A DNA stretch of 64,000 nt, from assembly GCA_001938485.1 (NCBI GenBank), contig MQRK01177746.1:1-64000 (forward strand). The letters are read 5' to 3'. Both the position numbers and the translations under genes were made by a program. The notes under the pieces were generated by a model. That model saw only the letters and a list, made by a program, of their open reading frames with translations. It was not told where the DNA came from and made no database searches. Positions 4,041 through 61,880 of the stretch are shown here, one piece after another. The stretch comes from Girardia tigrina (lineage: Eukaryota). Numbering within the stretch: position 1 is the first letter of the stretch; each line of letters begins with the position of its first letter.

Positions 4041-5291
4041 TTGGCAAGTTCTCTTCAAATCACTACAGTAGATCATGTCAATAGGTATATGGCGCAAGTA
4101 CAGACCCGTCTCTTTAGCCTGGGAGAGTCCCAGTTCTGATAGACTTGTCTCCATGTGTCCTGAAGTCGTCTCAAATAACTTTTTTTCCCAAAAACTTTTT
4201 CAACAAACCTTGAATGATTTTATTTTTATTTTCTTCTGTTTCTCCGCTGAAAATTCATTTAATCATTACTAATATAGTTTTTGTTATTTTTTAGTTAAAA
4301 TATCTATAGTTAGATATTTATTTAAATGTTCTTTTACATTATCCAAAATTTAGAAAAAAATTCAAGTAAATTTCAAAAATGAAATCGGTAATTTTAAAGT
4401 ATTGTTTAAAATATTTAACTTTCATTCTAATATTAAATAATATTTAATAATTTAAATCTCGATCAACCAAAAGGAAAATTAAGTAATTCTCATAGCCAAA
4501 AAATTATATTTATACTTTCTTTTTTTGTGAGGAATATTTGATGTGTTAATGTTTTGTGTAGAGTTTGAATGTTGTGTGTTCATCTGGGATCGTGTCTCTC
4601 CTAATCAGACGGATGATTATTATTTTAATTCTTAATCTGAAACTAATTTATTCAAATTTTTAATTTTTATTATTGTAAATTTTAAATAATTTTATTTTTG
4701 TAAGAAAATAATTAAAATCAAATTAATATTTAAAAATTATTTAAAAAAGTAATTTTATTTTAGATAATAAAATTTAAATAAAATAATTTTCTTCAAGTTA
4801 GTTCAGATTTTGGAAGAGAAGTATTAAAACACTGAGTGATGGATTTAAGTGCGAGCGATACTACTGATTGTCATAGAGATGATCAAAATTGTCAGTGTAA
4901 TAAATGCTCTGTCGAATGTGTGAGTTCTCTTCAAAATTTATTGATAATTTTATGATTAATAATATTTTGAATGATAATAATTGATAAGTAATTGTAAATA
5001 AAATAATCAGTTATAATAAATAAAAATTAATTATTTACAATAATTAATAATTACAATTAAGTTTATTATTAATTAAATAATATTTTCAATAAATTAATAA
5101 TATAAATCAATAAAAATAAACAATAAAATAATAGCTATTACAAATACAAAAAAAATATTTTTATTATTACAATTTATTAATAATTACATAATTTAATTAT
5201 AATTTCTTTAGATATTATTAAAAAATAATGTAAAAATAAAATAATTTTACTGTCGCACAATAGTCAGGTGAAAGTATTTCAACGCGCACAT
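4041..5291 (-). CDS. TIGAR: TIGAR-like fructose-2,6-bisphosphatase / histidine phosphatase, exons 1-3 (5291-5251, 4246-4209, 4159-4041); later exons not confidently found in the window
   Basis: Spliced with GT-AG introns this reads MCALKYFHLTIVRH-GETEENKNKIIQG-HMETSLSELGLSQAKETGLYLRHIPIDMIYCSDLKRTCQ. It contains the RHG catalytic motif and the SDLxR motif. The 38-nt exon 2 and the intron phases resemble vertebrate TIGAR as I recall it. Confidence 0.85.
4526..4933 (+). mobile_element. Solo LTR (same family as the Gypsy element at 55963-60867) in TIGAR intron 1
   Basis: Starts tgtgaggaatatttg, shares tgggat.gtgtctctcctaa.caga.ggat with the 60867 LTR, and ends tgtgagttctcttca. Confidence 0.8.
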
Positions 5292-7332
5292 TTTTCTCAA
5301 TCGCAATTTTAATCGTTGAGAAAAAATTTACAAAGTTTTATGTCTAACGTATATTCCAATTTCTTTCATACAATTTTTCATAAAAACAAATTCAAATCGA
5401 CGCTAATTTATTGAGACAATTTAAACAAAAAACATTTTCGTTCATCCGAAATCTCCCGTTAAATTTAATATATCTATTTTAGATGAAAATTCGTTGGTAT
5501 TTTTTTTTGGTTTTTCAAGAAATCTAAATCAAAATTTGCGGTAAGAAAAATTTAATGAGCAGTCGATTTTTGAAACTCGGTTCTGGAACATTTTATTTAG
5601 AAATGTTAACATAGGATACGAATTTTTTATTTGATTTAGTTTTTTTTAATGCTTCGGATATGTGAATTCGTAATTATAATATATAAATCATACACAAAAA
5701 AGTTGTATATGAATTAATCCTTTAATGTTTTAAGACTTTATGAATTCATTTTTGCAATGAATTTCTAAAACAAGTAATTAATATAATATACTCAAGATCA
5801 AATATATTAATTGAAGGTGCTAATTAATTTCTGTAAATAATTAATTGTAGTAAATAACTAATTTTTAAAATTATTTTTGCAAAAGAAATAATGTAGAAAA
5901 ATATTTATACTGAAGAAATTATTTGAATTAGTCTTTAATTTATTACTTTAAGAAGATAATTTGGACGAGTAAGAACTCTGACGGAATCCATAACAAAGGT
6001 ATTCGATATGCCATCTGCAGTACAAATATTTTTTTCACATTAAAAAATTAAGTAATTCAACAATATTTGTTATCTAATTATTTACTATGAAATGTAAAAG
6101 ACGATTACAATATATATTCTTCATTAAAAACTGAACGCGATTTTTAAAAATTATTGTAATTAATTTTTGCGGATTACTCGCCATCTTCAGACTAATTTAA
6201 CATTAGTTTTTTACTTTTTAGCAGCTTATATATGAAAATGGTGAATATGCTATCAAATATGGTATAAAGGCCTTTTTTAAAAAATTTTTACTGGGGGTAC
6301 ACCAGTAATCTGGCATGGTCACCTGCAGAAATACGGTAAGTTTTTATCTCGGATGAAAATAATTTTTACCTGGTTTTTTATAATGACTTTTGTTGAGTGT
6401 TGGTTGTGTTTTATTAAAAATAAAGGAACTCTTATTTTATTTTATAAAATATATTTATTATCTACAAGATAATTACAACTCAAGCGAAAGGATAGTGTTT
6501 TGTTTGGCCCCTGGCCGATTTTATATTAAACTCCGAGAGTCTTTAGCGACAACTCGAGTAGTTATATATTAGAAGACTTGGGCCACACTTTACAGCGTGT
6601 TCCCTATATATATATAAGATTATATAATAAACTTAAAGTTGCATTAACCTTTTAAAATAATTTTCACACTATTCAGTGCTATTGATAGTCGATTCAAATT
6701 GTTAAGCTTACACTCTTTCGGTGTGATTTAGGTGTGATTACTTTCGACTTTTTGAGCCGTTTAAATATAACGAATAATTAGATGCGGTATTTAAACCTTA
6801 TCGTCTTTCAACCAAATTCTTTTCTTAATATAAATTCTTGAACTTCTAAATTCTTCTAATTAACTTTAATTAACAACGACCTTTTATATTAGGTCTTTCT
6901 TTTAAAATCAACTTTATTTTTTAATTTAAATTTATTATTTATTATTTCTTTTTAAATATCTGTCTTTCTTTTTACTAGAACCTTCTTAAATATTTTATTT
7001 ATTTATATAAAAAATATGATTTTATATTTATTTATCATAAATATTCCATCTATGAAAAAATATAAATATTTGTCAATATTTATTAATTTAAACAACAAAT
7101 ACATGTAAATTATAAAATTTGAGATATTCCCTCAACACTTTTCCTCTTTCAAAAAGTTTTTTTATCGAGTGTTCTTAGATTTGAAAGAAGAAATTACGCA
7201 AACTCAAAACATTTTAAAAAAATGGACTGTAAATTTCACTCTTAAAAAATAGAAGCATAAATGGCACTTTTCAAAAAACTGGACCAACAATTTACATTAT
7301 GAAAAAAATTGACCCAATATTTAGAATTAGAA

Positions 7333-7692
7333 TTATTAAGAACATTTGGACAAGTCTCGTTTGAATTTTTATTACAATCACCTTTAGAGTCATTATGACT
7401 CTCAGAAGTCATTCATCGTTTGTAATCGTTCTAATTGGCTTTCTTATTTCTATGTGAGTAGGAATAGTTAGGTAATAAATATTTTTCTTACCTACAGAAA
7501 TAACTAAGAATAATTGCATAATATTTATGGTGTGATTGTTGATGAAACTGCTTGTGTAAAGACAGTTGTGATGATACAATAAAATGGGTTACTTGTCTAA
7601 TGTTGAATGTATGCTGAATGTATGTTGATAGTATGTGTGTTTTTGAGAGTGTAAACCAATGAAAAGGCTTTGAAAATGTGAGTCATTTGTCA
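7333..7692. mobile_element. Inverted 3' LTR fragment (7333-7450, homologous to 44860-44959) abutting a probable short LTR (7453-7692)
   Basis: 7333-7410 is the reverse complement of 44885-44960 (ctgagtcataatgactctaaa...aaacgagacttgt..aaatgttcttaata). 7453-7692 runs tgtgagt...tgtgagtcatttgtca. Confidence 0.6.
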
Positions 7693-9077
7693 AGTTACCC
7701 TCTTTAAACATTTTCATGGACTCAGAGTCCCCATCCGTTTTTAGAGTTCAACGGCAACTCAGTCATAGACTTCGCATATCTCAATTTCAACATTTATTCG
7801 TATATAGGGGACCGACGCGCCTCCTTCACGTACATCAAAAAGTTGTGTGTTCTTCGGAGCGCCTTAGGGTTCTAACCAGTAACGGGTATGGCCCGACTGG
7901 TAGCCTCAGTTTCCGAGGGGTTGATGTCATTTTTCATGATCATTTGAAAGAATTTAACTTTGATTACATCGAACGAAGAGAGCATCAAGGAAATAAGCGA
8001 CGATCGGACCACGTGCCCCTATATATACTGCGGTTGACCTGCGCCGCCTCCAAAAGGTTCTTCACCTTAGGCCGAGATTCAACCGTTGTTCATAATTTAT
8101 TTTTATTTCGTGTCTATGCTCGATTATATTTAGGTTTGGTTATATTTTGACGAATTATTTGATATTTGATATTATTATATTACGCTTAATTACGTTGATG
8201 TTCGACTAGATTCGATGGTATTTTATATCTATACCTGATTCATTTATATTAATTCCTTGCTCTGTTTACTCTACTTTTTATCAATTGTTTTAGTCATAAG
8301 ATTCACCATTTGATTAATTAGACATACATTCGAGAATCATAAATTAGTATACGAAATTGGGTTAGTATAAAAATCAGTTTGAGGATTATCCAGTTATTAA
8401 ATTAGTTCAACGTAGTCAGAATTTTATCATCGAAAATATAATCTTTCTTTAATATTTCTTGATGTCGAGCTTAGTTAACATGGTTTTCTTTAATAGATAA
8501 AGTTTAACAATTTTTAGTATGTACCTGTGGGATCTTGATAAATTTTCCGATTCTTAATGCAGCATATTAATTTTTCCCACCTATAATCATTTCGTTAAAT
8601 TTCTCGTCTCGAGTTCATATGCTCTTTCAACATTATTGAAAATAAGCTTTTCCCCGCCTCAACTTCATAATTACCAATTATAGTCCGAAAGAGGACCCTT
8701 TCTCGTTCTCTTGCAACTCTTTTACACAACATTGCTTTGCTCTAGATCAGTTAATTTCATTTAATAGTTCTTGCAGAGATAAATATAGTCTTTTGAGAAT
8801 TAATGCGTAATTTTCAATTGTTCCTCTGACTTTTGAATGCGAACTCGAAAATTATGTAGTAATATAAATTTAAGAGTTTGAAATCAAACCCATCATCACA
8901 GATAAACTCAAAATTTACCAAATTAATTAATCTCAAATATTGGATCAAGGTAATTTATCGATGCATTTGAGAACTTTTATACAATCAAATCAATCATAAA
9001 GAAAAATCACGAAATAGGATTTTTTATCCTTAACCAAAATTATTAACAATGGAATTAAATTAACTAATGAAGTTAGT

Positions 9078-9335
9078 CCGTAAAATTATTAATTCTTAAA
9101 TCAAATTTTTAATCTTTAAGTCAATTAGATGGAATATAAACAATTAAGTTAAAAATAACTACAAAATTATTACTTCTTAAATTAAAATTTTAATCATTAA
9201 ATCGATCAGATAGGATAGAAACAATTAAATTAAATTAACCACAAAATTACAACTTCTTAAATTAAATTTTTTAATCTTTAAATCAATTATTTAAGATATA
9301 AATCATTAAATTAAATCAGCCATAAAATTATTATT
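9078..9335. repeat. Tandem repeat of about 81 bp, 3 or more copies
   Basis: aaaatta.(t/a)a.ttcttaaat.aaa.ttttaatc.ttaa recurs at about 9082, 9163, 9243 and, partially, 9324. Confidence 0.7.
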
Positions 9336-9760
9336 GTTTAAATTAATTACGATCATATACATAAATCATCAGTACGCCCTATTTACACGACTAAGAACAT
9401 GACTCGGCTACGCATCAGAGTCCAATGACCATCTCTCTCGATCCCTTGGACGCGGAGACCAACCACAAGCATATTTCCGACCAGTGGGATCTCCAACCTC
9501 TACGGGGTCATCCTTGGATTCTGGAGTTGACCTCGACTCGGACAGGTAACTCAATTTCAAATACTCCATTATCATATTAAAACGCTCGGGACGAAGATAT
9601 CGACAGCAAAATAAATTATTTAAATAATCAAAGGTATCGACAACAAGATAAAATATAAAATTATTTAAATAAAAATAAAATGACATTATGTAAATAAATT
9701 TATTAAGAAGAATTAGAATAATACATAAACCATAGATAAACCATACCTCCAATTAATATA

Positions 9761-11230
9761 TGTTACGACACGGCTCGAATAAATAACCTGAAGGAAACCC
9801 TCCTTCTCATCCGACGCCCAGTACGCATGAAACCGTTAGCGAAAATTTGTGGGGATAGTCTAACTCGACTATCCCCGTTATTTTTAAATTTGTTTCAAGC
9901 ATACCGAACGCCAGACGTGAAAGAAGGTCCCTGTGTTTCCACCGGTGGGGCAATACTCGCTACCGGTTTGAACCCGAAGGCGCTCCGATGCACACACAAC
10001 TTGTTGATGTGCACGGAGGAGACGCGTCTGTTCCCATAAGCAATAAGAAGACAGAGAGCAATCACCGAGGGGAGTAGGAAAAGGTGTAAGATAAGCGTGA
10101 GTTGCCGTTTAACTCAGGAAAGCGGATGGTGTTCTGGGCCAACGAAGATGTCTTGAAACGGAGGGAACATGACATATATGTATATATTTCTTTAGAACGA
10201 TTGAAATGACGTCTCCGGTTATTTATCGGTTGCAAAATTAAAATTGTGTTTCTAATATTCTGGCAAATATCGTGTGTTCAAAAGTAGCTTTAAAATTTTG
10301 TTGTAGCTTTTTTGTGTCTCGCGTCTGTTCATACAAAGATGCACCGGGTATTTATACCCGATTGGTTGCAGGTATAACCCGATGCGCTCGGGTATTCTGT
10401 GTGCGCACATCAGGCCTAATTTAAACCTCCGATGTTTATCCAGCGATATCCTTTTTACATGAAAGGAAGGAGGAAAAGGGGTGAAAACATGATTGCGCTG
10501 CATGTTGGTTTATTCGGTTAATCGTCACAACATCCACGATGCACGGATATGGCAGCAGTTAGCTCTAGTTAGTACATAACCATTTCGGAGAGGTTTACTT
10601 TGTTTATGCTAACTATCCGGATATCGTTCTCTGTTTAGGCTATTATTCAATCCGATCGTCGTTGGTGGTCCGCTGTTACTGCCATTAATTGTCGTTCTTG
10701 ATTCTGCAAAAACCGTTGTCTCAAAATGTCCTCTCCAACCCTGTGACCATCTGTTATCTGTTTATACGGTTGATAGATTGTCTTCGTTTGTTACAGACCA
10801 ACAGATACCGTCTGGAAAATCATGCGACTGCATGATTCGCACTGATTCATCGCGGATAATTTTTAATTAATTAGGGTTTGTTAATTAATTTTCTTTATTC
10901 TCTAAGGGTTTCAAGAGGGTCTTCTAGCGATCGGCTCATTTGAGAAGGAAACAGGGCAGAATTCATGGAATTCTTCTCTTGCTCTTCGTATCTGCACGTA
11001 CGGAGCCTACTAACAACTAACGGGGATAGTCGAGTTTGATTATCCCTACAAACTCTCGATAGGGTTTCGTGCGTGCGGGACGTAGAGTGTGGAGAAAGGT
11101 TTTCTGCAAATTATATGATCATGTTCAATAGTCCAAAACTCTTTCAGAACTGAAACTAAACTCCCTGAAATTGACTAAATGACTTTAAAGTGGATTTTTT
11201 TCAGTAATTAAATAACGGCGAGTTGTAACA
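9761..11230 (-). mobile_element. 3' LTR (1470 bp) of a Gypsy-like element
   Basis: TGTTAC...GTAACA termini. Preceded on the minus strand by the PPT gaggagggatgaa (11231-11243) and the palindromic aaatctcgagacgagattt motif often seen upstream of Gypsy PPTs. Confidence 0.8.
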
Positions 11231-11466
11231 TTCATCCCTCCTCAGGTGAAATCTCGTCTCGAGATTTAGGCAAATATATAGACTGAATGAAAGATATAGA
11301 AGAAAAAGGTAAGTATAAACTACATGCGGCTGATAAGAATAAATGTTTATATAGTGTCGCATAGTATTGTTCAATCAATTGCTACATAACATACACATTG
11401 ATCCATTCAATAAAGTAGTTAATTTTTTGTTCGTTATTTACAATTGTTCCATTCAATTATGATCGA

Positions 11467-13740
11467 TTACACAAATGTCCCGATCGTGTTCGGTCGATGT
11501 CCAAACCGCGGGATTATCGTCTCGTCATTGATCGCCCACATCGGTCGTTGAAACTCAAGATGATGGAGGGTTCTCAGTCGAGTCGACATTCTCGGCAGGT
11601 TTATCAATTCGATAAGCATCCCATCTTGCGTGGTTATATCTCCTAACTCGTGGTCGATTCTGGCTTGTGCATTCTCTTCGATTTCTCTCACTATTTTGGT
11701 TTGTATTAGATTTTGAGGACCTTCCGATGGGGTCTAGGTTTTACCTCCAGTCAGTCTCTTCTTTCGGTAATCTCGGTTTCTGCGTTGATATCGTCGATAG
11801 TAGAGATGTAAGTTGATGCCTACCAAGGCGACTAGAGCACCAATAGGTCCTGCAATATTTATTACAATTATAAGGTTACTCGTTTTATTCTTTATCCGTT
11901 GAATCTTCGTGATTTTTCAAGTTGTCCGTTGAGTTGGTCGATTCGTAGTATTGGTCTTTGAAATCGTTGCAGGTACTATTACCCTATCTCCCTCTATACT
12001 CATATTTGTATATCGATACTATAGTGAGCTTAGTAACTCTTTATTTTGTTCGTATACTTTATCACCGTACTGTGGGAATACTATGCGTGTTTGATTCCCT
12101 TGGACTAAATATTCTTAGTGGTATATCGCAAAATTCGCTTCTTTTTTATCTGGCCATGAAAGTAACTGTTAATCTTATTGGTGTATTCACATCAGCGCGT
12201 ATATAGCTTCGGCTTTGCTTAATTAAGGACACTGGTCTTACGATATCTTAACTCCCGTTTCTGCTCGAAGGTTTGGCAATTCAATATTAATGGTTCGTGC
12301 AATCGGTTGGCTTGTCCGTTGTTGATGCTCTGAAATTTGTTGATTCCGTTTATTCGTTCTCGAAGCGGTTGATGGTATTTACGGTAATAGACCCGATACG
12401 CTGTTGCTTTAAATTGGTTTACTATCAGATAAAATATTGTTTCGCTATAAATAAGGACCTCTCTATAATCTCTGATAACCGATTTTTTTTCGACTTGAAC
12501 TTCTAACAATCCAATTCGTTTGTAAATACCTTTCTGTTGGCATATGGCTCCTTCTTGGTGATCTGTGGCCAAGCTCGTACCTGTTTCCGTACCACAGATT
12601 ACGATAATCACTTAATTGGTTTTCATGAGGTGTCGCAAAATTTGAAAACTTTTCAAGGTTACGGTTATCTCGTAATCCTCTACGAAACCAAAGTGTAGAT
12701 ATGGTTCGTAACTTGATCCCATTGTCTCGGCTACTTTGTGATTCTCGCCCACATTTATTTTATCAACCTCGGTCATTCATCGAAGTAGTTCATAAGGGGA
12801 CAACTTTAAACGGTGTACCTCCCATAACATTCTCAACATTTGTATTTTTCATTCGGCTGTAACCTGTGATCCGTTTATGCTATATTCTTGATAGTTTATG
12901 GGGAATCTTTTTCCGTCCATGTTTCAAACTTTTAACACTGCCAACCAGGCTTTCGTGTTATTATGGTTTCTTGATAGCAACATGCATTCTCCTTTTGATG
13001 ACGATCGTCCGTGATACCCCTCTTTCAATATTGACTTGTCATTGTCATCTTTATTCATTAGTAAACTTTCCACTCGTACTTGTCCTTGCTCCTTTCGTAT
13101 GGCGTTCTTTGTTCTCTCTGATAGATATAGAAATTTGGTTGTTGGGTACAATAGTGGTAATAACCATCGAGCGTTCTGATACCATGGGGTCATTGCCCAC
13201 TCCACTCCATTTTGAGTTACTTTTATACTAGTGTACCACTCGATAGTGCATATTTCTCGTTCTGATGTAGGCCTGGAGGAAGATGTTGTCCGTAGAATCA
13301 CTAAATCGGCAGGAATAGCTGCTCTCCATTTCGTAGACGGTTTCTCGCACTTAGGTTGTTCTGCTATTACACATATCCATTCAGGTATGGTTGTCGCTGA
13401 TTGCGTGTTCATATATACCTAGTTATACCTGGCTATTAAATTTCCCTACACGAATCGGTACACCGAGGCTTCGCTGATACTTATCATCATTACTGCCATT
13501 ATCATACTTGTCAACATCATCGAAGGTCGGTAAATCAGATTGGCGTGTGGAACCATTCGTGTTGAACCATCAATATATAGTATAATCGTGACTGTGATTA
13601 CTGTGGATGCGATTACTAAGATGCTTGCTACTGCGAGTATTGTCATCAAGGTGCCGTGGTCCTCTGGCTTTTTTGGTCGCGGCTTTGAAGTTGTCTTAAC
13701 TGTCTTCAATCTGTTCTTGGACTTCCGTTGTACCCATTGT
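11467..13740 (-). pseudogene. Degenerate env-like type I membrane protein ORF (about 750 codons) of an LTR element
   Basis: Collinear minus-strand ORF pieces (13709-13446, 13412-12924, 12611-12219, about 11880-11467). N-terminal hydrophobic segments, a Cys/Trp-containing ectodomain, a C-terminal TM (LIIVINIAGPIGALVALVGINLHL) followed by RRYQRRNRDYRKKR. Lies directly upstream of the PPT and 3' LTR. Confidence 0.6.
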
Positions 13741-13929
13741 CTGATCAGAAAATCGATTGGGTCAATTGTTCAGACAATTGTTCACCCACGGATAGCGGAA
13801 TGAAATGAGCTATATTCATTGTAACTAAACATTTTTTTAAAACTAGAAATTTTTAAGAACTAGATTTTTATTTTGACTTCAAATTTTAATTTATATATAT
13901 ATATATATATATATAGTAGGACTTCAGTT

Positions 13930-21205: not shown

Positions 21206-22105
21206 ATACATGTTTGTGTTGAGTGTGTATAAATGAAATTGAATTAGTTATAATTTATAAAATGTAAAGGCGCCATGTACTGTAGCCCGTAGCCCGTAGC
21301 CCATAATTTGAAGGCCGTAGCCCGTAAATTCACGCCCGGCCTGTACGGGCTCCACCCCAGGTTATAAACGTAAGTATATGTGTGAATGTGAAAGTTTTTG
21401 ATTTGATTTGACAGTTGAGTGTGTGTAAGTTATGTGTGTAAAGGCTTTTTTTGATGAAATTTAATCACAATTTCAATCAAATAAAAAAAATCAATTTCAA
21501 ATGGGTGAAAGAAAACAAAATCGATATTATAAATCAGAAATCGAATGCGTTATGTGTATCCTGGAGTCTGAAGGGATTTGTCATTAATCAGTACGACAAT
21601 TTGATTAATGAAAAGCGCTCGAGTGCGATCAAAGACATTTTTGACTCCCTCAGAGCATCTCCATAGGCCCGCATGCTCCCTTCTTCCTTTCAATTCGGAA
21701 AAAGATATATATAACAAGATTTATTAACACAACAATACAACTTGCATCAACAATTAAAAACAACGAATTTCTGTCAATTTCCAGATTGGATAATTTTTAC
21801 CACGGTTAAGTTCAATAAAGGTTTTAAACTTCCACTTCATTTCAGCAGGAGCAACTTGATTTGTCACACGGATTTTGAAATAATGACAAAATGTTTGGAT
21901 GTTGCGATATCTTATAACGTTTATTATATTTATTTTATTTGATACATTAAAACAAAACATATTATAATAATATTATTTATATATTACTTTTAATATAATA
22001 AAACAAACACTTGTTATTAATTTGTTTTAATGAATCACTTTTAATAAATAGATACAAGGCGGGAATTTGAATTATGATGGATACAGTGACATTCATTTTT
22101 AACAA

Positions 22106-22543
22106 ATGCTGTGTAAAATCAATTAGAAAGGATTTACTCAAGATTGTCTAAAAGACCTCCATTTTGGTACTAAACCGTATCAATGTGTTTTACACTTTCC
22201 GGAGTACACCATTATATTCTTCCGCAATGGAAAATGCCGAATAATGGACTATAAACAACCAATTGATCCATTCACTTTACCATTCAATATCACCAATGTT
22301 AGTTTACAATCTATTACAGTGACGTGTGATTATGGTGAGCCCATAAATATCAATGCTTTGAAAAAGACTACTCCGAATCATTATGAACCTGAAATGTTTC
22401 CTTCTTTGAGATTAACTTGTTTTAATCCAATATGTGTAAATGTTTTTGGTTTTGGGAAAATTATAATCACCAGTTTGAGAGATTTGAACTATAAGGATTT
22501 TGTTACACGTGTTTGTGACTATATTTTGTTTAAAACTATGTAA
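22106..22543 (+). pseudogene. Miniature intronless TATA-binding-protein (TBP)-like gene, 145 codons, premature TAG at codon 7
   Basis: MLCKIN*KG...YTIIFFRNGKCRIMDYK (first TBP repeat, like LIFxSGK). Then SLQSITVTCDYGEPININAL...HYEPEMFPSLRL..NPICVNVFGFGKIIITSLR (second repeat, like NIVGSCDVKFPIRLEGL..YEPELFPGL..LLIFVSGKVVLTG). Confidence 0.85.
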
Positions 22544-23468
22544 GTTGTGTTTCAAATATATTTTTTGGTATCTTCATTCCAAATCTTGTGTATATTTTAC
22601 ATTGTACATATTTGTTGCAGCTTTAAAAGCTATGTAAATAAATGTTTGTTGAAATTACTCGTTTTATACATGTCTTTATTCATAAACTTGTAAACAACAA
22701 CTTTTATTATATATAATATTGATATATACTATAAAATGTTAACTGTGCAATTCGTTGACATGATGGTTGATAATAATCACTTAGCTGATTATGTAGATGT
22801 TATGTATAATGTCGATGCATGCTTTAAGTATTATAGGAGTTTTATACATTTAGTTTTTACATCTAAAATAAAAGGTTATATATCTTGGTTATGGTAACCA
22901 TGGTGCTAGAGATTGTTAAGAAGGTACATTAGGCAATTAATGAGTTATGGTTTGATGGTAAATACATGCATATATCATAGGGGTTTCAGATATATACGAA
23001 AAAATGATTTTTGAGCACTTTTTTGAGAATTTCAGAAATGTTCGAAAAATCAATTTATCAGCCCTTTTACAAAAATGTTAATATGGAATCTGAATGTACG
23101 TTATGGGTTACTATTCAAGTGCATTAGCACTTTTTTGATATTCTGCTTCCTTGAACCTCGAAAATCGATGTGCATTTTGTGTAAATTTGCACATTGTGTT
23201 AATTATAGAGAAAAGTAATCAATATATAAAATTTCTAATTGCACATTTAGATAGAGAATCATAATGTGCATCAAACTCATGATATTGATTTTTGACACTT
23301 AAAAAATTTTATGTATTGATTTTTGCACTTTTGCACATGTGCAGCTTGAAAAGCACTGTGTTATCATATTAGAAATGTGTGGCACAATGGGCACTATCGA
23401 TCAGCACTTAAAATATCGATTAGCACATCTTGGCACTGTACAGCAATCGATTAGAACTTTTTTCTACA

Positions 23469-23711
23469 CTTGCTAAGGAAAGGGTCACAGTTGCTATGGA
23501 TACGGTAACCGTTACCATGGTTACAACCGCCTTGAATCACTGTATCGTTGCTAATGAAAAACATCCCTTGGTTACCGTTGATATGGTAACTAAGACCTTG
23601 GTTACCGTTACCAAGTGAACCGGTAACAGGGACCGTTGCCATAGTAACCTAGACCGTTGCTATGGTAACCGCGACCGTTTCTATGGTAATTGAACCTGTG
23701 TCCATGGTAAC
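23469..23711. promoter_or_regulatory. Array of 7 or more RFX X-box-like palindromes
   Basis: GTTGCTATGGATAC (23490), GTTACCATGGTTAC (23511), GTTGATATGGTAAC (23577), GTTGCCATAGTAAC (23635), GTTGCTATGGTAAC (23656), GTTTCTATGGTAAT (23677), GTGTCCATGGTAAC (23698). These match the X-box consensus GTNRCY-N2-RGYAAC, some with mismatches. Confidence 0.7.
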
Positions 23712-23789
23712 CTTTGTCGAATGCTCATTTTCCCCCTACTAATTGTTCAATTTAGCCGATATATTTGCCTGAATGCTAATGCTCACCAA

Positions 23790-25546: not shown

Positions 25547-27108
25547 TTATTCTTCTTCACTCAGGAAACATTTAATAACAATTTCGTTGTTCAAAAATAA
25601 GTCTCGCGAAATATCAATTTTCGAGCACTTTAATTCTTTACCAAAAGTAATCCTACGATTTCTTTCATCCTTTGGTTTATCATGAAGTTTTTCTGTCAAT
25701 CTTGTTGCTCCATATTTATATGTAATGTTTACAATTATCTCTTCGGTGTCTTTGTTTATGATAGAAATATTAATATTATTTGTCATCGGCCAAGAAAGTT
25801 GTTCATCGAATTCTCCTTTCAAAATTGTCAACCCTAACATTACTAAATTTCCAGTCGAATACAAAGAAAGAGACATTTTATATCCTTCTTTGTGAGAATA
25901 AAATGGTTCACTTTCTAATTCAATTCCACGTTTTTTATTAAAACTTATATTTTTACCAATTTTCCATTCAAATACTTCATAGGTCTTTCGGCAAAAGACC
26001 TTTAATTTCTGAATTTTCTTTCTAAATCGGAAGAAAACTTCCTCGTCACTCTTTTGGTTTTTATCGATATCATCTGGTAGTTTCTTTAATTCATTTTCGA
26101 TATGGGTCTGAAAATAAGTTTCAATAAACATTTTATATTCAAAAGACTATAATCAAACTATAATAGATCAATAATGATAAAATTATTTGTATTCATCGAA
26201 GGATTGTTTACGCAATTATTTCGTAATAACTAAAATCTCAGAATATTTTAAACGAAGTAGAAGAACATGTTGATTTTTGGAGCAAGAGTATTAATCATCA
26301 GGTATTAACCAATCACCGTCTCCAAATAATTATCAAATTGTGAACAAAAAATTTTAAAATTACTTAGATTATGTAGATTTAAGTAATTTAAAAGTGATTG
26401 GGTACAGAATCCTTCGATATATAAATTTTAGTTTATCAATATTGATATATTATCCTTTTTCAAATATTTATATGAAAAATATATTTATGTACCTCATTAA
26501 TCAAGCGTCGATTCTCAAATTCAGAAATATATTCTATTAATTTTCCGATTTGATTTTGGAGCAACTGAATCATTTCCTGTTTAATATATAATAATTTAAT
26601 ATATTATTCTTATTAAATATCTTACGTCTCTCTCTTTTATACTTGTCTTTAGGTTAGCTATTTCTTTGCCGAAAAATTCTTTGGTATCATTAATACTTTT
26701 CGTGATGTTTTTTGTTATGAGTAAATGTGAGGAAATTTCATTTAAAGATTCAATTTCGTTTGAATTTATTTTACCTTTAAAAAACTGAGAATAACCATTC
26801 TTTTGAGCCACGCCTATTTCGTTTAGAGAACTGTTTTGTTCTTTGGTAGACGAAAGGGAGAACTGAGGGAATAATTTTGCAATTTCCTTCATTATCACTT
26901 TACTTTTCTTTATGTTTTTCACGGGGTTTAATATAAAATCTTTACAGTCTTCCTTTTGACCGGGACAAGGTTTTTCAGTTCCATTTAAATAATTTGTAAT
27001 GCAAGTTAAACAAAAAATACATCCACAAGGAGAATGATGAGCGTTCATCAAGATATTTTTACAAATGATACATTTGTACTTGTCTTCTACGTCCATAACT
27101 TCATTCAT
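25547..27108 (-). CDS. TRAF-family protein (RING, coiled coil, MATH), about 388 aa; exons 27108-26626, 26576-26493, 26146-25547
   Basis: RING CIICKNIL..PCGCIFCLTC..CP; GT-AG phase-0 introns; MATH domain FEWKI..SEPFYSHKEGYKMSLSLY..ILKGEFDEQLSWP..IVIKC. Reading frame is open throughout. Confidence 0.9.
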
Positions 27109-27987
27109 TATTCCTGCATCAATATTAATTAATTAAATATTTATTAAACAATCTTTTTATTTATAAAAATAGGAAAAAAATATTAACCTTACGAAAATGA
27201 TACAAATTTGATACAATATAATTTTTTTAAAACAAATTTTAATTTAAATATTAATTTTGATTTTCTCTGAATATTTGCAAAAAAAACATTTAATTTTCAA
27301 TATAAAAAATTTTAAAGAAATAATTATTTTTAGTTGTGAAACAAAATTTAATAGAAAAAAATAAAGATTGGCGGTGTTGTCTAAATCGAAGTTAGGATCT
27401 CGGTCGGTCGTCCACTATAGAGACCAAGAAAAGAATGTACATCAAATAGTTGTCGAAAGTCCATAATACAAATAAAAAAATCGTTATTTTATTATATTTA
27501 TATTTTTTTCAAAACTAAATCCGTCTAAATACAAAGCTTTTAAATTTTAATTTCGACCGCAAATGATTAAAAAGTTTAATAGAATTAATAAAAATAAAAT
27601 GTCCGGAATTAATTTTAAAAGCTTATAAATAAAATCGTGCTTTCTGTCTTTTTCAACCAAGATGACTTCTATAAAAACGAATATAAATATTTTTTAACAA
27701 AAAGTGACAACATCTTAAAACAGCAAATCATACTTTATTTTCGAGATATTAATAAAAAAGGTATTTTTTTTAAAATTTTAAACTTTAAATATTTGACATG
27801 AAAGATGTATATTATTTTTACAATTACATCATATATATGAAAAAAATTATTACATCCTATAAAATCAATTTTTTATCTCTCTTTTTTAAAAAAATGAAAA
27901 TGTTATTAAATTATATTAATTCGTATAATTTTTTATTCACCAAAATCCACAACGTGTTTTGGTCCTGAAATAATTATTGTCAGTAAC

Positions 27988-47185: not shown

Positions 47186-48131
47186 ATATGACACATTTTG
47201 TAACTATTTTTATGAGAATAAAACGGTTGACTTTCAAGATTAATGGAATTATTAAGGAAATTCTTCTTCTCAATTCTACATTCGAATTCTTGGTTGATTG
47301 CAGCTTCAAGTTTCTGGATATTTTTTTTGAGTTCCATCAAATTTTCTACATCTTTTTTTCTTTGTTTGTTAAATTGAATTGAAATTTTTTGAGATTCTTT
47401 TTCTATTTTTGTCTAAAATTGAATCGATAAGATACATTCGTAAAACATCGAATTATATTTACCTCATTAAGTGATTCTTCTTTTTCAAGCTGAGAAACTT
47501 TGATGGCAAGGATTGCGAGTTGATCTTGAAGGGTTTGTATAAACTCCTAAACAAAAACACATTTTTAGATTAGTAACTTAACATTTATTAAACATTTTAC
47601 GTTTTTATCTTTAATAGTTTCCTTTAGATCCTCGTATTCTTTTGTAAAAGATTTTTTTTCTTTTTCAAACTCACTGAGATATTTTTTAAGCAAACTTGAA
47701 TGAGAAAGGCTTTCAGAAGAAAGATGTGTTTGAACATCTTTTATTTCCACAAAATCTGATTGACATCCAATATCACTATAAGGACATTTTGAACGGGCAT
47801 CATTACACTTATATGAGTGAGGAATTATATGCTTTAATTTGCCTTCTTTTTCACAAGAAGAGCATTTTACAACAATATTCGTAATCAAAGTAGCAAGAGT
47901 TAAACTGTAACGTATACTTCCATCGTTTAATGATACCTTGCCACATTTATTAGTTGATCCAGGACACAAATTTTCAGAGTTATTTAGATAATTTGCTATA
48001 CAATCCTTGCAGTAGGTGCAGCCACAAGGTCCAAAGTAAGGATTTATCAAAAGATCATGACAAATGATACACTTGTATTTGTTTTTAATGTTTGTTATTA
48101 AAAGAAAACGATTTCGATCTTCGGTATTCAT
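47179..48131 (-). CDS. TRAF-family paralogue (RING, zinc fingers, coiled coil, MATH start only), about 282 aa; exons 48131-47601, 47546-47463, 47412-47179
   Basis: RING CIICHDLL..PCGCTYCKDC..CP; TRAF zinc finger CPYSDIGC..H; the same 84-nt exon 2 as the 27-kb paralogue. Exon 3 reads ...FECRIEKK..ESQPFYSHKNSYKMCHIL* at the Penelope junction. Confidence 0.85.
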
Positions 48132-48322
48132 TGTTTCTAAATAAAAATAATTATTATTATTTTCTGTTATTTAATTAAAATATCATCTTTATATTTATTC
48201 ATAAAAGATTTGAGATATTTTACCGTTCTCGTGGGAGAACGAATTATGAAAAAAATATAATATAAAATAAAATTTAAAAAACTGAAATAAGTTAGGAAAA
48301 TTAAAGAAAAATGATCTGAAGC

Positions 48323-49859: not shown

Positions 49860-52800
49860 ACATTAATGGTAATTTTTAAAATTACTGCACAATATTTTAA
49901 AATTAGTTATTTTCACCTCCGATTTAAAACCCTCCGACCCTGGTCACATCATTTACATTCAAATTTTAACTATCAATTGATGTTTAAATAGAAGATTTAA
50001 ATTTTTGTAACCTTCTGAATAAGGAACGATTAGCGTATAATTTGTTGAAAATATTTAATTATTTATTAGGCAAGATGTTTGCATAATCATCGATTTGCTA
50101 TATACAGGTATCCCTCCTATAACACGGTCGATAGGTTCCAAAAATATGACGTGTTATGTGAAACCGTGCTATAGGAGACCAGATGCTGGTACAAAATGTG
50201 GGGTTAAGTTCCAAAAAAANNATTTAAATGCCACGGAATGAACATTAATTCTATTAAAGATAAAAAATAAATAAAAATTCAATTAATTATTCAAAAAAAC
50301 AAATATAAACCCACGTAAATGCATAAAAAACAAACAAAAATAGGCTGAAATATCCGTGGAAAAATTCCATGAATTTTTATTTTTATTGTTTTTCATTATC
50401 GCTGCTCAATTCCATTAATTGCGAATGTTTTTTCAGCCGAGTACTATCATCTGTACCTTCTGAACTTACATTGCTATTTTTTTCGCCCGTTGATACCTTA
50501 AAAAAATCCGTAATTTTGCCTTGTTTCCTTGTCCGTTCAAGGTTGTTGTAAATTTCTTGATACNNNNNNNNNNNNNNNNNNNNNNNNNNNNNNNNNNNNN
50601 NNNNNNNNNNNNNNNNNNNNNNNNNNNNNNNNNNNNNNNNNNNNNNNNNNNNNNNNNNNNNNNNNNNNNNNNNNNNNTTTTTTAGTGTCAAAATATTAAC
50701 TTCATTATATTCATCAGAGCTAGAATCGATTTCATTTATTTGGGGTTCGGATGCCATTTCCACCAAATCTGCTTCTCCAATTTCTTGTTCTACTAATAAG
50801 TCTTGTATGTCTTTGATGGCCATATCCACAAAACCCTCTCCTCCGACCAACCTAGCGCATTCTAAAATGGCACCAATTTCTTTTTCCCCTGATTCGTGCG
50901 CGCTTCCTAGTACAACTGCTGCTGGCCATATCTNNNNNNNNNNNNNNNNNNNNNNNNNNNNNNNNNNNNNNNNNNNNNNNNNNGCTGCTGGCCATATCTT
51001 TTTCCAACATCGATTTAATGTTGTAATTTTCAGTTCTTTCAGCGATAAAGATATGATGTCGATGCAATCTTTAATTGAAAATTGCTTCCAGGCTAACTTT
51101 ACCTCAATAGATTTGGAATCAGTTACATCTAAAATCCATTGTAATGATCTTCTTATGTAATATGTCTTAAAGGTATAAATAATACCTTGATCTAAAGGCT
51201 GTAGCAATGAAGTGGTGTTAGGAGGAAGAAANNNNNNNNNNNNNNNNNNNNNNNNNNNNNNNNNNNNNNNNNNNNNNNNNNNNNNNNNNNNNNNNNNNNN
51301 NNNNNNNTAAAAGCGCCTTGAAATTTAAATTATTGCGCTTTAAATAAGATTCTACTTCCGGAACAAAACAATTTAAAAACCAATTTCGAAATAAATCAGC
51401 AGTTACCCAAGCCTTTGAATTTGCTTTCCAAAGCGTTTTTATTTATGCCTTTAAGTGCACGGGGATTCAAAGATCTATAAATTAACATGGGCTTTGCCAT
51501 ATAATCACCCGAGGCATTACTCCACAAAAGTAACGTTACACGATCTTTTGATACCTTGAATCCAGGTGCAGTTTTTTCATTTTTAGATATAAATGTTCTA
51601 TTGGGCATTTTTTTCAACCAAAGCCCGGTTTCATCGGCTTTGAAAACTTGTTTCGGTGTATGTCCCTGCTCTTCAATTATTTTTTTTAACTTTTCTGGAA
51701 ATGATCCTGCAGATTCATGATCTGCTGATGCAATTTCACCTTGAATTTTTATGTTGTGAAGTGCAAAACGCTTTTTAAACTTCTCAAGCCAACCTTTACT
51801 GGCTCTAAAATCTGGGTTCTTAAAAGATTCAGTGTTTTTTTTAAGGTGTTCATAAATTTTAAGAGCCTTTTGCCTAATTATATTACTGTCCAATGGAATC
51901 TTTTTCTGGCAGCTATCATCAATCCAAATGCTAAGTGCTTTCTCCATTTTTTCAATTATTGGCACACGTGGACGAGCTGAAAACTTCGCGGACTTCGAGA
52001 ATCCTGCAACAACAGCACTTCTAATTTCATTCTCGCTTTTCTTAATTGTGCGGACTGTTGCCTCATTTAAATTTAGGTTTTTTGCAATGTTGGATGCCTT
52101 TTCTCCCTTTAGCAGACGATCCAAAATTTGCATTTTTACTTCTAAGGAAATAAACCTTCTCTTCTGGACTGTTTTTATGTTTTCACCAGACATAGTTTAG
52201 GACGGAAAATTATTTTTCTAAAAATAGTCATACTTAATTTAAAAATTAGCTCCTTATTAATTACAACAAAAAGCTCAATATAATCGATTCGTTTTAAATT
52301 AAACTTCATTAATTATTTTTGGTTATTATTTCGCAATTCCACAAAATATTGCGTTTTCTATTTTACAGAATACAGTCTGCGCTCTTGTGATGGGCTCCAC
52401 AAAATGCTAAAATACATGTTATTACAAATATATATGTTACAAAAATAATTAATAAAATTCAAATATAAACACCTGCATAGAATTGTTAAATTTTTAATCC
52501 AGCTTGCATACCAAGATTTTTTTTGAAACAGCAAAGTTGAGTACATACAAAAAAAATTAAGACTTGTTTCTTGAAGTAATAAAAATATGTGCATTTTAAA
52601 TTGTATTTTATGACAATAATATAATTTTCTTAAACAAATAGTGTTGTAGAAGTCCGTTTTATAATAGGTTTCAGAAAAAAAAATCGTGTTAGAGTGAAAT
52701 CGTGTTGTAGGATACCGTGTTGTAGGAGGGATACCTGTATAAGACAGTGAAATTCTTGTTAATTCGGTCTGAAGATCGTGGAAAATCCACCAAAATATTG

Positions 52801-52993: not shown

Positions 52994-55962
52994 AGGTTCA
53001 TGTACAATATATTTTTATGAAAGTTGCACCAGTGATTAACAAATATAAATTCCTACATAATCTTTGTTCATTTGAACCTCAATAATTTTTATTTCATCAA
53101 TTATGGAGCTAGGTTCGAGTTACGAATAATTAACACAGCCTTCGAATTAATTTTAATTTGAAATCAGTTGAATTTCATTGAATAATATTAGTGAACGAAG
53201 TAAATTTATAATTTACACCCAGCAAAAACATACAAATCACCAACAAATTGTGTGCACACATGACATTTAGTGACTGTATTGAATAAATCATACATACATT
53301 ATATGTAAATGTATATTTACATATAATATATACCATATTTATATTAATCTGAAAAAAAATAATTTAGTAAAAGTCGTTGAAGTTTTCTTAAGCTATGCTA
53401 TTGTTTTTGTTCATACATTAAAAGTAATCATTTCGTCTTTAGAAATTTCGGTTAAACAAACGGTTAAACGTTTAATTCTTTAAACGGCTTGTGTTTAAAC
53501 ATTTTACACTTGTTATTTAATTAAAAAGTTAATTCAATAAATATACAGACTTTTTAAAAATAGAAAAAAAACAACAACAGAACACTAAAAAAACTAACAA
53601 AAAATGGTCTATATTTTTATTACAGTGATAACAAACATGTATATATTTTATTGAAGAGCTATAATTCTATGAAAATAAGAAAGTTTGTCGATCTCATAAT
53701 AATATTCTGCTACTATGGCAGCTACGTTTTAGGATAAAATTGCTTATTGTTTCTGTTGTCCGGTTCCCTGTTATCGAAAAAAATTAGCCGAACCACATAA
53801 TTGTGAAACACCACGACGTTCTTCAGGATCCGCTCTGCCAGTCTCGGTCATCGTGTACCATTGTCATACCGCTGGGTCCGACGGGAACACGGGCGGACTG
53901 GGCGGGAACCGGGCTGACAGCAATCGCAGGTTTAGGACTCCGTGAGAATCTTCGTGGACTGACCGACAAGAATGTCCCGCAAGATTCGATCTAAGTTCGA
54001 AGAAGTGACTGTTCTTCTAAACAACAGTACTGAAAATGATTGAATTTCCTTTGCTAAGGCCACACTGTCACGAGCTCAAACCGTAAATCGGGATTTGAAT
54101 AGTTCTAGTTCCTGTAGGCTGATTTCTTTTCGGGATCTATCGAAATATGCTGCAGATCAACGATACAATCATTCAAAGTGAACAAAATTAAGATCGATAA
54201 AAGTAAATGTAAAAAAAAGTCGAACTGACAATTATTTAATTGAATTTTCACAAAAAAAAGTTATCCGACTGTAAAATCGTATTAATGAATTAAGAATAAA
54301 ATGTAACCACGATTAATTAAACATTTATTTAATAACGACAATTATTAAAACAAATGTATTTTTTTAGGATTTAATTAATATTTGAATTTTCATTAATTAA
54401 ATCTTTTCTCGACACTACAGCTTCTTCTTTCTTTAGGAGATGTAATCGCCTAGGTAGTTTGGTGGCTTGCGTTTTCGTTTTCCGTCTGTTCCGTTCTCCA
54501 TGATTTTTTCATAGTCCTTCCGGTGGTGTTCGGTCGTCCGATTGTCCACTTTTTCTTTCTCTGGTTCTGGCTTTTTCATGAGTCTTAGTTTTCCGGTGTT
54601 TATCGTAAATTTATTATCTGTTAGGAATGTGTGAGGTCCTATCTGCTTTTCCAATCTCCGGATAGGTCCTCCATGTGTTTGTACGATATCCCCGACTTTG
54701 AATTGGTTTGTAAATTGTGGCTTTCTCCTGTTATTTGCGTATTTTATTCGTTCTTGAATTTTCTTTTGTACAACTTTTTGAAGTTCTATTTTCTCCTCTG
54801 TCGGTTCATCTCTTCGTCTTATTTCTAAACGAGTATTAATTTTCCTTCCGAACATCAATTCTGCGGGTGTCTTTTCTGTAGTGCAATGCTTTGTTGCATG
54901 ATAGTTCAGTAAGTATTCTCGGATTCTCTTTTTAGCTTCTGAGAGGCCTTTTGGTACGCCTTCTGGTGTTAAAGCCTTCTTTACGTTTCTATTTATCCTT
55001 TCGACTGTTCCGTTAGCCTGTGGATTATAGATTGAAGATCTACGTTGTGTTATTCCACACTGCTATAGGAATCTTCTAAAATCGTCCGAGATAAATTGTG
55101 GTCCATTGTCAGTAGTCATGATCGTACAATAACCGAAACGGCTAAAGGTTTCTTCTAGGAATTCAATTATCGTTTCTGTAGATACTTCTGTTGTGATCTT
55201 GATTTCTGTAAATTTCGATTGATAATCAATTAAATTTAAAATATAATATTTTCGCTCGCTCATATCGTATTTCGGTCCTGCAATGTCCAAGGCTAAGTGA
55301 AACCAAGGTTCGATCGGCCATATTGATTCCTGTACCGGGCTTTCTCTTGGAATTGATCCGCAGCATACACACTTTGATATTGTTTCTTCTATATGCTTGT
55401 CCATCCCCGGCCACCAGTAGCTTGTTCTTAATCTGGTTTTAGTCTTTACCATTCCTTGGTGTCCTTCGTGAGCGATCTTCATTATTTTCTCTTGTAGACT
55501 TGTAGGTACAACAATTCTATCTCCTCGTAGTATGACTCCATTAGTTTTTGAAAATTCATATGGTTTCCTGAAGGCCATTCACAATTTATTGTTATCCGTT
55601 CCATCTGGATTGTCGAGGAACACTGCTAGTTTTGAGAGATCGTCATCTTTCTTCGTTTCTTCTTCTATTTCCTGAATGGTTATTGCATTCATATTAGTTA
55701 TGATAGCTACTTCGACGTTTTCTTCAAATCTCTCTTCGTACTCGTTTTTCCCAGATAACCTTGACAATCCATCTGCAACAACGTTGGTTTTTCCTTTGAT
55801 ATGTGAAACCGTGAAGTTATATGGTAAGAGCTTTGTAGCCCACCTTGAGATTCTGCATGGTGCCGTACCATCTCCATTAATGGCAGATAGTAGTTGTCGT
55901 AAGCTTTGGTGATCTGTTCTTACTTGAAATTTTCGTCCATAAAGGAATCTATGCAATCTCAT

Positions 55963-60867: not shown

Positions 60868-61880
60868 CTCATGATGCTCCAGATGACGCTGAGTGCTTCT
60901 TTTTCTGATGCTGAGTATTTTCGTTCTGAATCATGAATAGTTCTGCTGATAAAGTAGATTGGTTTTTCAATCCCTTCTTGGATTTTGCTTAATACTGCTC
61001 CAAACCCGTTGTCTGAGGCATCTGTTGTCAGTATAGTTTCGGTTTTCATATCTGTCGAGTAGAATGCTTGTGGTACTGCCTCTGAGATTGCTTGTTTCAA
61101 CTTCTGAAATATTGCTTCCATATTTTCTGTCCACTGGAACGTTATTTCTGTTCTCGTCAAATTGTACAGTTTGTGTGATAATTCCGCGAATCCTGGAATG
61201 TTTGATCTATAGTATCCGGCCATTCCTAGAAATGATCTGAGTTGTTGTTTAGTCTTTGGAGTTTCGAAATCAATAATAGCTTTCAACGCTTCTGGCACTG
61301 GGTGTACTCCTGTTTTATTAATTAATTTTCCCAAAAAGACTATTTCTTCTTTGCAGCATAACGATTTCTCTTCATTAATTGTCACTCTATTCGATTTCAG
61401 CCGAAGTAATGTTTCATTCAGTCGTTGATCATGCTCCTCCATATTTTTCCCGTACACTAATATATCATCTAGATAACAGACAATGTCTTCACAGTGTCTG
61501 AGGATGTTCGTCATTACCCTCATGAATGCTGCTGGGGCATTTGCTAGATTAAATGGAAGTCGCTTGTATCTGAATAAACATATGTGCGTAATAAAAGCTG
61601 TTAAATCTCTGTCTTCTTTTCTGATGGGTAGTTGATGGTATGCTGAATTGAGATCCACTTTTGAGAATATTTGAGCTCCGTACAGCTTTTTGTGAATTTC
61701 TTCTTGAGTGGGTATTGGAAACTGATCGATTTTGATGTATTGGTTAATCTTCCTGTAATCGACTCACAGTCGAATTCCATTCTTCTTGTTTGCTATTACT
61801 ATTGGTGATACAAATGCTGATGACTCAATTGGCTCGATGACATCTTGTGCAATCAGTTTTCTTATCTCTTCAGCGACAGG

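Follow-up and report, generated by a model that had tools for sequence, protein, structure and literature searches.

Polinton/Maverick elements (polintoviruses, adintoviruses) have AG...CT ends and generate 6-bp target duplications. The element that we describe here, from the genome of Girardia tigrina, shares with them a polymerase B, an rve integrase, an ATPase, an adenain-like protease, long inverted repeats and the 6-bp duplication. It differs from them in that its core genes lie on two units of ~8 and 9 kb, with the integrase, the ATPase and the protease on the second unit only, rather than on a single unit of 15–25 kb, the size given in the accessible part of PMC6431247. The accessible running text on Polintons/Mavericks, figures apart, mentions no shortened TBP, promoter motif or split. 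In the accessible parts of the adintovirus paper and preprint, TBP appears only as a figure-legend label on MELD viruses, whose TBP genes may belong to the family described below. PMC11161782 mentions neither TBP nor segments, and the Pannagram preprint contains no TBP, bipartite or split. Planarian Polintons are silenced by piRNAs according to the accessible part of PMC8532177, where their structure is not given. Our literature search, with Repbase, most subscription papers and figures beyond its reach, returned no split Polinton, no shortened Polinton TBP and no TATAAAC[AG] promoter motif; one supplement of PMC8502044, the text of which is possibly incomplete, gave no match on these topics.

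Viral TBP homologues are known from other systems. BcRF1 of the beta/gamma-herpesvirus type, encoded by EBV, prefers a variant TATA box, TATT, in late promoters (PMC4922670, accessible part). It has 577 residues and acts with five other viral proteins, whereas the protein described here, the mini-TBP, has 145 residues and no recognized partner gene. The fold match between the two is weak (E 1.9e-3, TM 0.38). By analogy, the mini-TBP may work like BcRF1 while standing outside the BcRF1/ORF24/UL87 family. The TBPs of Nucleocytoviricota are two-lobed like the mini-TBP and have a diverged N-lobe, for which an escape from Mot1/BTAF1 was proposed (PMC7221094, accessible part). According to the same part of that source, however, these viruses mostly have their own TFIIB, and the first of two TFIIB-contact glutamates is kept in ~40% of their TBPs, whereas each of the two is present in 58 of 60 aligned mini-TBP family members. 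Furthermore, the N-lobe helices are deleted outright in the mini-TBP. In the complete copies of both units no ORF was recognized as TFIIB, the small ORFs of the second unit being unassigned.

A segmented genome whose termini match and a protein-primed polymerase are also features of the bidnaviruses and the Drosophila Vesanto virus, which the accessible parts of PMC8502044 and PMC8363768 describe as ssDNA, parvovirus-like viruses. In contrast with these, the present element has retained the integrase, ATPase and protease of Polintons and duplicates its target on integration; it is read here from integrated copies, which hide strandedness.

The mini-TBP pseudogene and its element fragment

The window that we analysed is a stretch of 64,000 nucleotides (contig MQRK01177746.1, positions 1 to 64,000). 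It consists of AT-rich animal DNA with many transposon pieces and TRAF-like genes. The latter, with RING, zf-TRAF and MATH domains, lie on the minus strand at 25547–27132 and 47565–48170, and nested or tandem LTR retrotransposon pol genes occupy 54433–61763 of the same strand. A class II tRNA synthetase fragment and two Tc5/pogo-type transposase remnants were found at 691–1131, 2043–2531 and 50383–52196. The GC-richer stretch at 7674–13800, with several ORFs of 100–165 residues, of which those tested matched neither Pfam nor PHROG, is probably another decayed element.

A preliminary description had reported a miniature TBP-like protein at 22106–22543 of the plus strand. On re-reading the sequence we found the 145 codons and stop without introns or N-terminal extension, as well as the in-frame stop at codon 7, which is present in 2 of the 49 copies in which that codon can be read. 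The Pfam TBP profile search that had been proposed gave a match with an E value of 4.6e-10 (39.7 bits for a cut-off of 22.9); PF00352 covers residues 58–116 of the 138-residue open part, i.e. the C-lobe only. Searching the PDB with this open part yielded 35 distinct sequences, all of them TBPs or TBP-containing chains. The window copy is 89% identical to an unbroken protein of the family, P0001. Its C-terminal repeat contains the Phe motifs YEPEMFP and VNVFGFGK as quoted earlier. The claims on the N-terminal repeat stood in part: alignment gaps confirm its shortening and FGTKPY is present, but the aromatic residue of FGTKPY is not a family feature, being found in 9 of 51 copies at a column that is also variable among 60 relatives. 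The window copy further deviates from the family at two positions, 48 and 123, both of which are conserved, in 59 of the 60 relatives each. This ORF is a genuine TBP-family ORF, a dead copy of a Polinton/Maverick mini-TBP and not a host gene. The TBP identity first proposed was right; the carrier of the gene, a Polinton-type virus-like element, had been overlooked.

The complete copy of the unit that carries the gene, unit A, matched the window by blastn in a sole stretch, 21699–23740. This stretch of ~2 kb is one decayed insertion, a right-end fragment of unit A, and the polymerase gene and left end of the unit are absent from the window. Next to the mini-TBP pseudogene, the minus strand carries the 3' remnant of ORF1, a predicted T7-type SSB gene (21699–21803, 93% match to the complete unit), and the ORF1 5' remnant followed by the AT-rich spacer that separates the divergently oriented ORF1 and TBP genes (21804–22105, delimited by blastn to the unit). 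A deletion at 21803/21804 has removed some 660 bases of ORF1 and brings unit positions 4650 and 5312 next to each other in the window. On the other side, the terminal inverted repeat common to units A and B spans 22781–23740 and ends with ...CCCCCTACT at 23740, a Polinton-type terminus. It is 82% identical to the opposite end of the complete unit A and 87% identical over 680 bases to the unit B repeat. Near the terminus, inside the repeat, lies a 21-bp tandem array (23622–23689); clusters of the same motif mark the ends of both units.

Fold and conserved residues of the mini-TBP

The structure prediction suggested earlier was run on unbroken P0001, and the AlphaFold model (pLDDT 96.6) has a TBP fold. 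It superimposes on human TBP with a Z score of 14.3 and an rmsd of 2.4 over 145 residues, and its two-lobed saddle is predicted to be complete. The stretch of the model ahead of residue 82 contains no helix of at least four residues, which indicates that the N-lobe helices are gone. Relative to seven cellular TBPs, 14 residues are missing from the N-lobe at the H1 region and 13–14 at H2, where the span is 26 residues vs 39–40 in the cellular proteins. The H2 region is longer in a few distant relatives, L095 and L254 among them.

Canonical cellular TBPs have four DNA-intercalating Phe residues, two per lobe. Across the 60 aligned members, F39 is conserved in 59 and F98 and F114 in all, and the first N-lobe position is variable and mostly non-aromatic in a loop where the alignment is inferred. 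Judging from this alignment, three of the four intercalating Phe residues are retained, and so the family departs from the canonical cellular pattern. The C-lobe glutamates E94 and E96 are the two TFIIB-contact residues kept in 58 members each. In its accessible part, PMC7221094 (Ravarani et al.) assigns the C-lobe glutamates to TFIIB binding and the basic residues of the N-lobe helix H2 to TFIIA, TAF1, Brf and Mot1/BTAF1. Since the glutamates are kept and N-lobe H2 is deleted, these assignments predict that the mini-TBP uses host TFIIB and lacks the regulatory face.

Copies, selection and relatives

The own genome (1.43 Gb in 255,254 contigs) contains at least 152 mini-TBP matches with 75–91% identity; they come from 150 scored candidates out of 1602, and the copy number is thus at least 150. 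In 28 of 51 distinct copies the aligned part has neither stop nor indel. The comparison of synonymous and non-synonymous changes among genomic copies, also proposed earlier, gave different pictures for singleton and for shared changes, the latter being those found in three or more copies. Singletons are neutral in the 51 copies (50 synonymous, 198 non-synonymous, pN/pS 1.04), and shared changes are not (47 synonymous, 33 non-synonymous, pN/pS 0.18). Since singletons are neutral and shared changes bear the mark of purifying selection, the mini-TBP gene was useful in the active lineage and decays after insertion. With fewer changes, the shared ratios were 0.14 for the ATPase (singletons 0.91), 0.14 for part of the polymerase and 0.18 for the putative capsid protein; that of ORF1, 0.43, was computed on a frame-shifted set. 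The TBP of a second subfamily, with three copies, was left out of these calculations.

A tree of 55 rows, in which the 'euk' and 'arch' labels were assigned by reading the sequences, separates mini-TBPs from host TBP-like loci, with 27 of the former and 5 of the latter on opposite sides of a 100/100 branch. This bears out the earlier view that the gene is no recent retrocopy of host TBP, an origin that is ruled out by the separate clade together with the purifying selection on shared changes. The host has intron-containing TBP loci (L245, L248 and L251), and also intron-free, multi-copy, divergent TBP paralogues with 47% and 35% identity to plant-like TBP (L246, L247, L249, L250, L252 and four contigs).

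Searches of public proteins identified 10 close proteins and 65 representatives at E values up to 1e-10, mostly of 140–175 residues, and the Atlas contains TBP clusters of 144–158 residues. Among the 28 best metagenome mini-TBP loci, 17 have a Polinton-type gene and 10 an ATPase, integrase, putative capsid or protease gene. Our IMG/VR search returned five TBPs, all distant, and no match for the ATPase or putative capsid protein of the element.

Organization of units A and B

Analyses of the flanks of 30 regions showed that unit A consists of polymerase B, ORF1 and TBP genes between inverted repeats of ~1 kb, in at least two gene orders. One copy with both ends (L215) has 7870 bases, with its left end duplicated and a perfect 6-bp target duplication; none of its ORFs of at least 70 residues is an integrase, ATPase or capsid-like frame. 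Pieces of the unit A polymerase match DNA_pol_B_2 (E 1.1e-7 and 1.7e-5), i.e. the protein-primed polymerase B. ORF1 has no Pfam, PHROG or Atlas family and was placed by fold search alone. The C-terminal domain of an unbroken copy is modelled (pLDDT 85) as an OB fold with a capping helix, and the best hits were DUF2815 (Z 8.8), the Enc34 SSB (8.6), T7 gp2.5 (7.9) and ASFV CP312R (7.5), the next one scoring 5.3. With these middling Z scores, ORF1 is predicted to be a single-stranded DNA-binding protein of the T7 gp2.5 type.

In the second gene order (L056 with L033, L065 and L047) the polymerase is inverted, and some unit A copies contain an additional paralogue of ORF1 and, ahead of the polymerase, a short palindrome. 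A location of the TBP gene inside both inverted repeats was considered and rejected: the different orders are forms produced by inversion or deletion, and a second TBP in inverted position was found in none of the regions examined. At their 5' ends, ORF1 and the polymerase ORF share a direct repeat of 87 bp (87% identity), located at positions 4463–4549 and 5378–5464 of the complete unit and at 21870–21967 of the window; it is perhaps a common early promoter or leader. In another locus (L186), a 2.5-kb mini-element composed of repeat, TBP and repeat adjoins a unit B remnant. All 30 bins of unit A are covered by contigs from three sequencing runs, two of RNA libraries and one presumed to be RNA. 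Since the repeats are covered as well, this coverage is indistinguishable from DNA carry-over.

The own genome also yielded 151 ATPase and 107 putative capsid matches, which define unit B. Its copy L216 has 9041 bases, with 50 N in the repeat and 5 of 6 bases of the target duplication. The order is repeat, two small ORFs, ATPase, pX-like protein, integrase, putative minor capsid protein, pZ-like protein, putative major capsid protein, protease, unassigned ORF and repeat, without polymerase or TBP. The pX, pZ, exo and capsid labels are presumptive and in part positional. The ATPase matches Pox_A32 (E 4.2e-7), and the integrase and protease are 56% and 38% identical to Pfam-confirmed relatives, the protease itself having no Peptidase_C5 match. 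The putative capsid ORFs, for which a Polinton would be expected to encode double and single jelly-roll proteins, are of fitting size and place and 42% identical to relatives; they have no Pfam, PHROG or PDB match, and their labels rest on size and position. A piece of 70–127 bp from the 3' end of ORF1 (21707–21772 of the window) is also found between the two small ORFs of L216, possibly a scar of the split.

Three further unit B copies are likewise flanked by repeat sequence on either side and lack a polymerase match; two of them are interrupted by runs of N (1454 and 581 bases). In all, repeat sequence was found on both sides of five unit A and four unit B copies. The units carry Polinton-type long inverted repeats, AG...CT ends and target duplications, the latter with 6/6 bases for A and 5/6 for B in one copy each, and there are 30 distinct end contexts. 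The repeats are as similar between the units as within them: 86.9% identity for A–A, 86.1% for A–B and 86.2% for B–B, on the basis of 19 TBP-centred and 24 ATPase/capsid-centred repeats. The repeat directly precedes the ATPase block in 17 of 20 loci, none of which has TBP or polymerase there; these 20 loci were picked from the 151 for their long flanks, which excluded the second subfamily. Downstream of the capsid block the repeat is present in 11 of 18 loci. The remaining loci on either side are cut short, contain gaps or, in one case, are joined to a piece of TBP. Conversely, no ATPase, capsid, protease, pX, pZ or exo gene was found in the examined flanks of 52 TBP-centred copies; the integrase was omitted from this filter because retroelements confound integrase matches. 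None of the examined loci joins a family polymerase to the capsid block, and in subfamily 1 the polymerase and integrase do not lie within one inverted-repeat pair (five A and four B copies, separate). Two loci count against a clean split: in L232 a TBP piece is joined to the protease gene, and in L223 the unrelated polymerase B of another Polinton family (28% identical) lies beyond a repeat piece. Because the polymerase, ATPase, integrase, putative capsid and mini-TBP genes lie together on one contig in two relatives (L095 and L253), the split is a derived state. The Polinton thus described lies in the genome as two complementary and likely interdependent units, A of ~7.9 kb and B of ~9 kb.

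The second subfamily has a mini-TBP that is 70% identical to that of the first and an ORF1 paralogue beside the ATPase and integrase (L235, L236 and L239). Its TBP occurs with the ATPase in 3 of 12 loci and its ORF1 with the ATPase in 9 of 12. It is young, the best copies being 97–98% alike, and was missed by the long-flank sample because its copies lie mostly on contigs of <2.5 kb. The capsid, protease and exo copies that we examined clustered in one group.

A candidate promoter motif in unit B

The motif TATAAAC[AG] was noticed post hoc, by reading upstream of unit B genes. Unit B has 11 sites, all on the coding strand, where 1.95 are expected, and none of 200 shuffles reached this number. 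The complete unit A copy has none, and 102.8 kb of A copies contain five. The distance from the motif to the first ATG is 33–42 nt for the two small ORFs, the integrase gene and both putative capsid genes. Among the B copies, the sites are kept no better than the background (144 of 194 site-copies vs 0.73).

We then turned to the 28 metagenome loci, which had not been used in the discovery of the motif. They contain 43 sites on the TBP strand vs 4 on the other (shuffle mean 6.4), and for three of these four sites the Polinton genes are also on that strand. The canonical TATAAA[AT][AG] is unbiased in the same loci, with 24 vs 24 sites. The distances to start codons are not random: 31 of 46 sites lie 20–70 nt before a first ATG, vs 8% at random, and 34 of the 56 sites that have a start codon no more than 150 nt away fall in a peak at 30–49 nt. 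The ATG-distance test picked out 6 of the 11 unit B sites, and only 3 of 12 sites in L253 and L254.

Eleven Polinton contigs filed in bacterial genome bins (L253–L263) are likely mis-binned eukaryotic viral DNA, and such mis-binning may explain the archaeal labels on Atlas mini-TBP clusters. Two of them have a mini-TBP-type gene and show 10/0 (L253) and 2/0 sites on the coding and opposite strands. A third one (L255) codes for a full-length TBP of 183 residues at 10652–11200; it has 0/0 TATAAAC[AG] sites and 10 vs 3 canonical boxes. Polintons likely acquired TBP more than once, or L255 has the unshortened form. Two longer contigs without TBP have 0/1 and 0/0 sites, and a partial one, also without TBP (L262), has 3/1. 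The motif is absent from the coding strand of L255, L260 and L261, the contrast with TBP-less or full-TBP Polintons resting on three partial contigs.

Discussion

We propose that the dead ORF of the window is a mini-TBP copy of a Polinton held as two complementary units, and that the unbroken protein is a late transcription factor, predicted to bind TATAAAC[AG] before the packaging, integrase and putative capsid genes; we give this reading a probability of about 0.62. Unit A would be transcribed early by the host machinery, and its polymerase and SSB would copy both units from their common ends. The mini-TBP would then occupy TATAAAC[AG] and draw in host TFIIB and RNA polymerase II via its C-lobe glutamates, whereas TFIIA, TAF1 and Mot1/BTAF1 would be shut out by the loss of the N-lobe helices. 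The integrase and the particles for both units would come from unit B. The model predicts that the mini-TBP prefers TATAAAC[AG] over TATAAAAG and shuffled DNA. We take the missing N-lobe Phe to be placed at the 3' end of the box, where TATAAAC[AG] departs from the canonical TATA. Altered promoter specificity, one of two roles suggested in the preliminary description, is supported as the likely one by the enrichment and position of the candidate promoter motif.

We do not favour the other suggested role, that of a decoy: conservation is highest in the DNA face and at the two TFIIB-contact glutamates, and the surface for host regulators is deleted. A host shut-off factor that titrates TFIIB or blocks host TATA boxes could profit from the same architecture, as glutamates kept on a protein stripped of its regulatory lobe might permit uncontrolled TFIIB binding. 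However, an element without its own RNA polymerase gene depends on host transcription, and a motif that accompanies the mini-TBP across relatives would be left unexplained, so that we find this role very improbable. A host factor, whether TBP, a TBP paralogue or a forkhead protein, might instead read TATAAAC[AG], with the mini-TBP boosting all genes of the element or binding its ends. The host does have several divergent TBP-like loci, L262 has sites with no TBP on its contig, ATAAACA is presumably also a forkhead-type site, and the forkhead-like [AG]TAAA[CT]A is itself enriched (106 vs 63). Yet GTAAACA alone is barely so (16 vs 11, shuffle 9.8) and the G-ending variant of the motif is common. 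Furthermore, the fixed orientation and the 30–49 nt peak suit a core promoter and not an enhancer site, and the motif is missing from the coding strand of the three contigs mentioned above. We consider a host reader unlikely. As for a neutral family of retrocopies or pseudogenes that descends from host TBP, the broken window copy and the neutral singletons are what it would produce. Against it stand the relatives in viral gene clusters and the fixed place within an element with inverted repeats and target duplication, and we count it as already refuted by the clade separate from host loci and the purifying selection on shared changes.

More serious is the possibility that units A and B are two successful deletion derivatives mobilized by an unsplit helper Polinton, in which case the late role of the TBP would still hold. 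The helper might be the second subfamily, young and with TBP, ORF1, ATPase and integrase kept together; if it carries a polymerase, A and B may be derivatives that depend on it. The relatives L095 and L253 are unsplit, and the assembly is fragmented into its 255,254 contigs. However, passive derivatives need no purifying selection, which the shared changes reveal in genes of both units (TBP, polymerase part, ATPase and putative capsid); on this basis we argue that both units were needed. The gene sets of A and B are, moreover, exactly complementary, and a link between the family polymerase and the capsid block was found in no examined locus. Mobilization by a helper is therefore a possibility that we regard as doubtful, without dismissing it.

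The reading of A and B as interdependent halves, with the mini-TBP as late factor, can be extended tentatively, at somewhat less than even odds, to a bipartite integrating dsDNA virus: a split Polinton with common ends, its units linked in trans through a TBP that is the smallest of its kind and would read a private late promoter with host TFIIB. The TBP–promoter pair would then be a general late switch in a widespread branch of animal polintoviruses. This bears on two open questions, how Polintons time their capsid genes without their own RNA polymerase and whether they still act as viruses. The defined pair of protein and motif makes the idea of a late switch testable at the bench, and the two might serve as an orthogonal promoter system. 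A TBP without the regulatory face but with the TFIIB contact is a natural experiment on the minimal needs of TBP. For annotation, the hundreds of 'TBP' matches in such genomes, and TBP matches in bacterial bins, are viral rather than host paralogues. Lastly, the Polinton lineage was the donor of the bidnavirus polymerase, and a split Polinton, if true, would represent a route from one-piece to segmented genomes.
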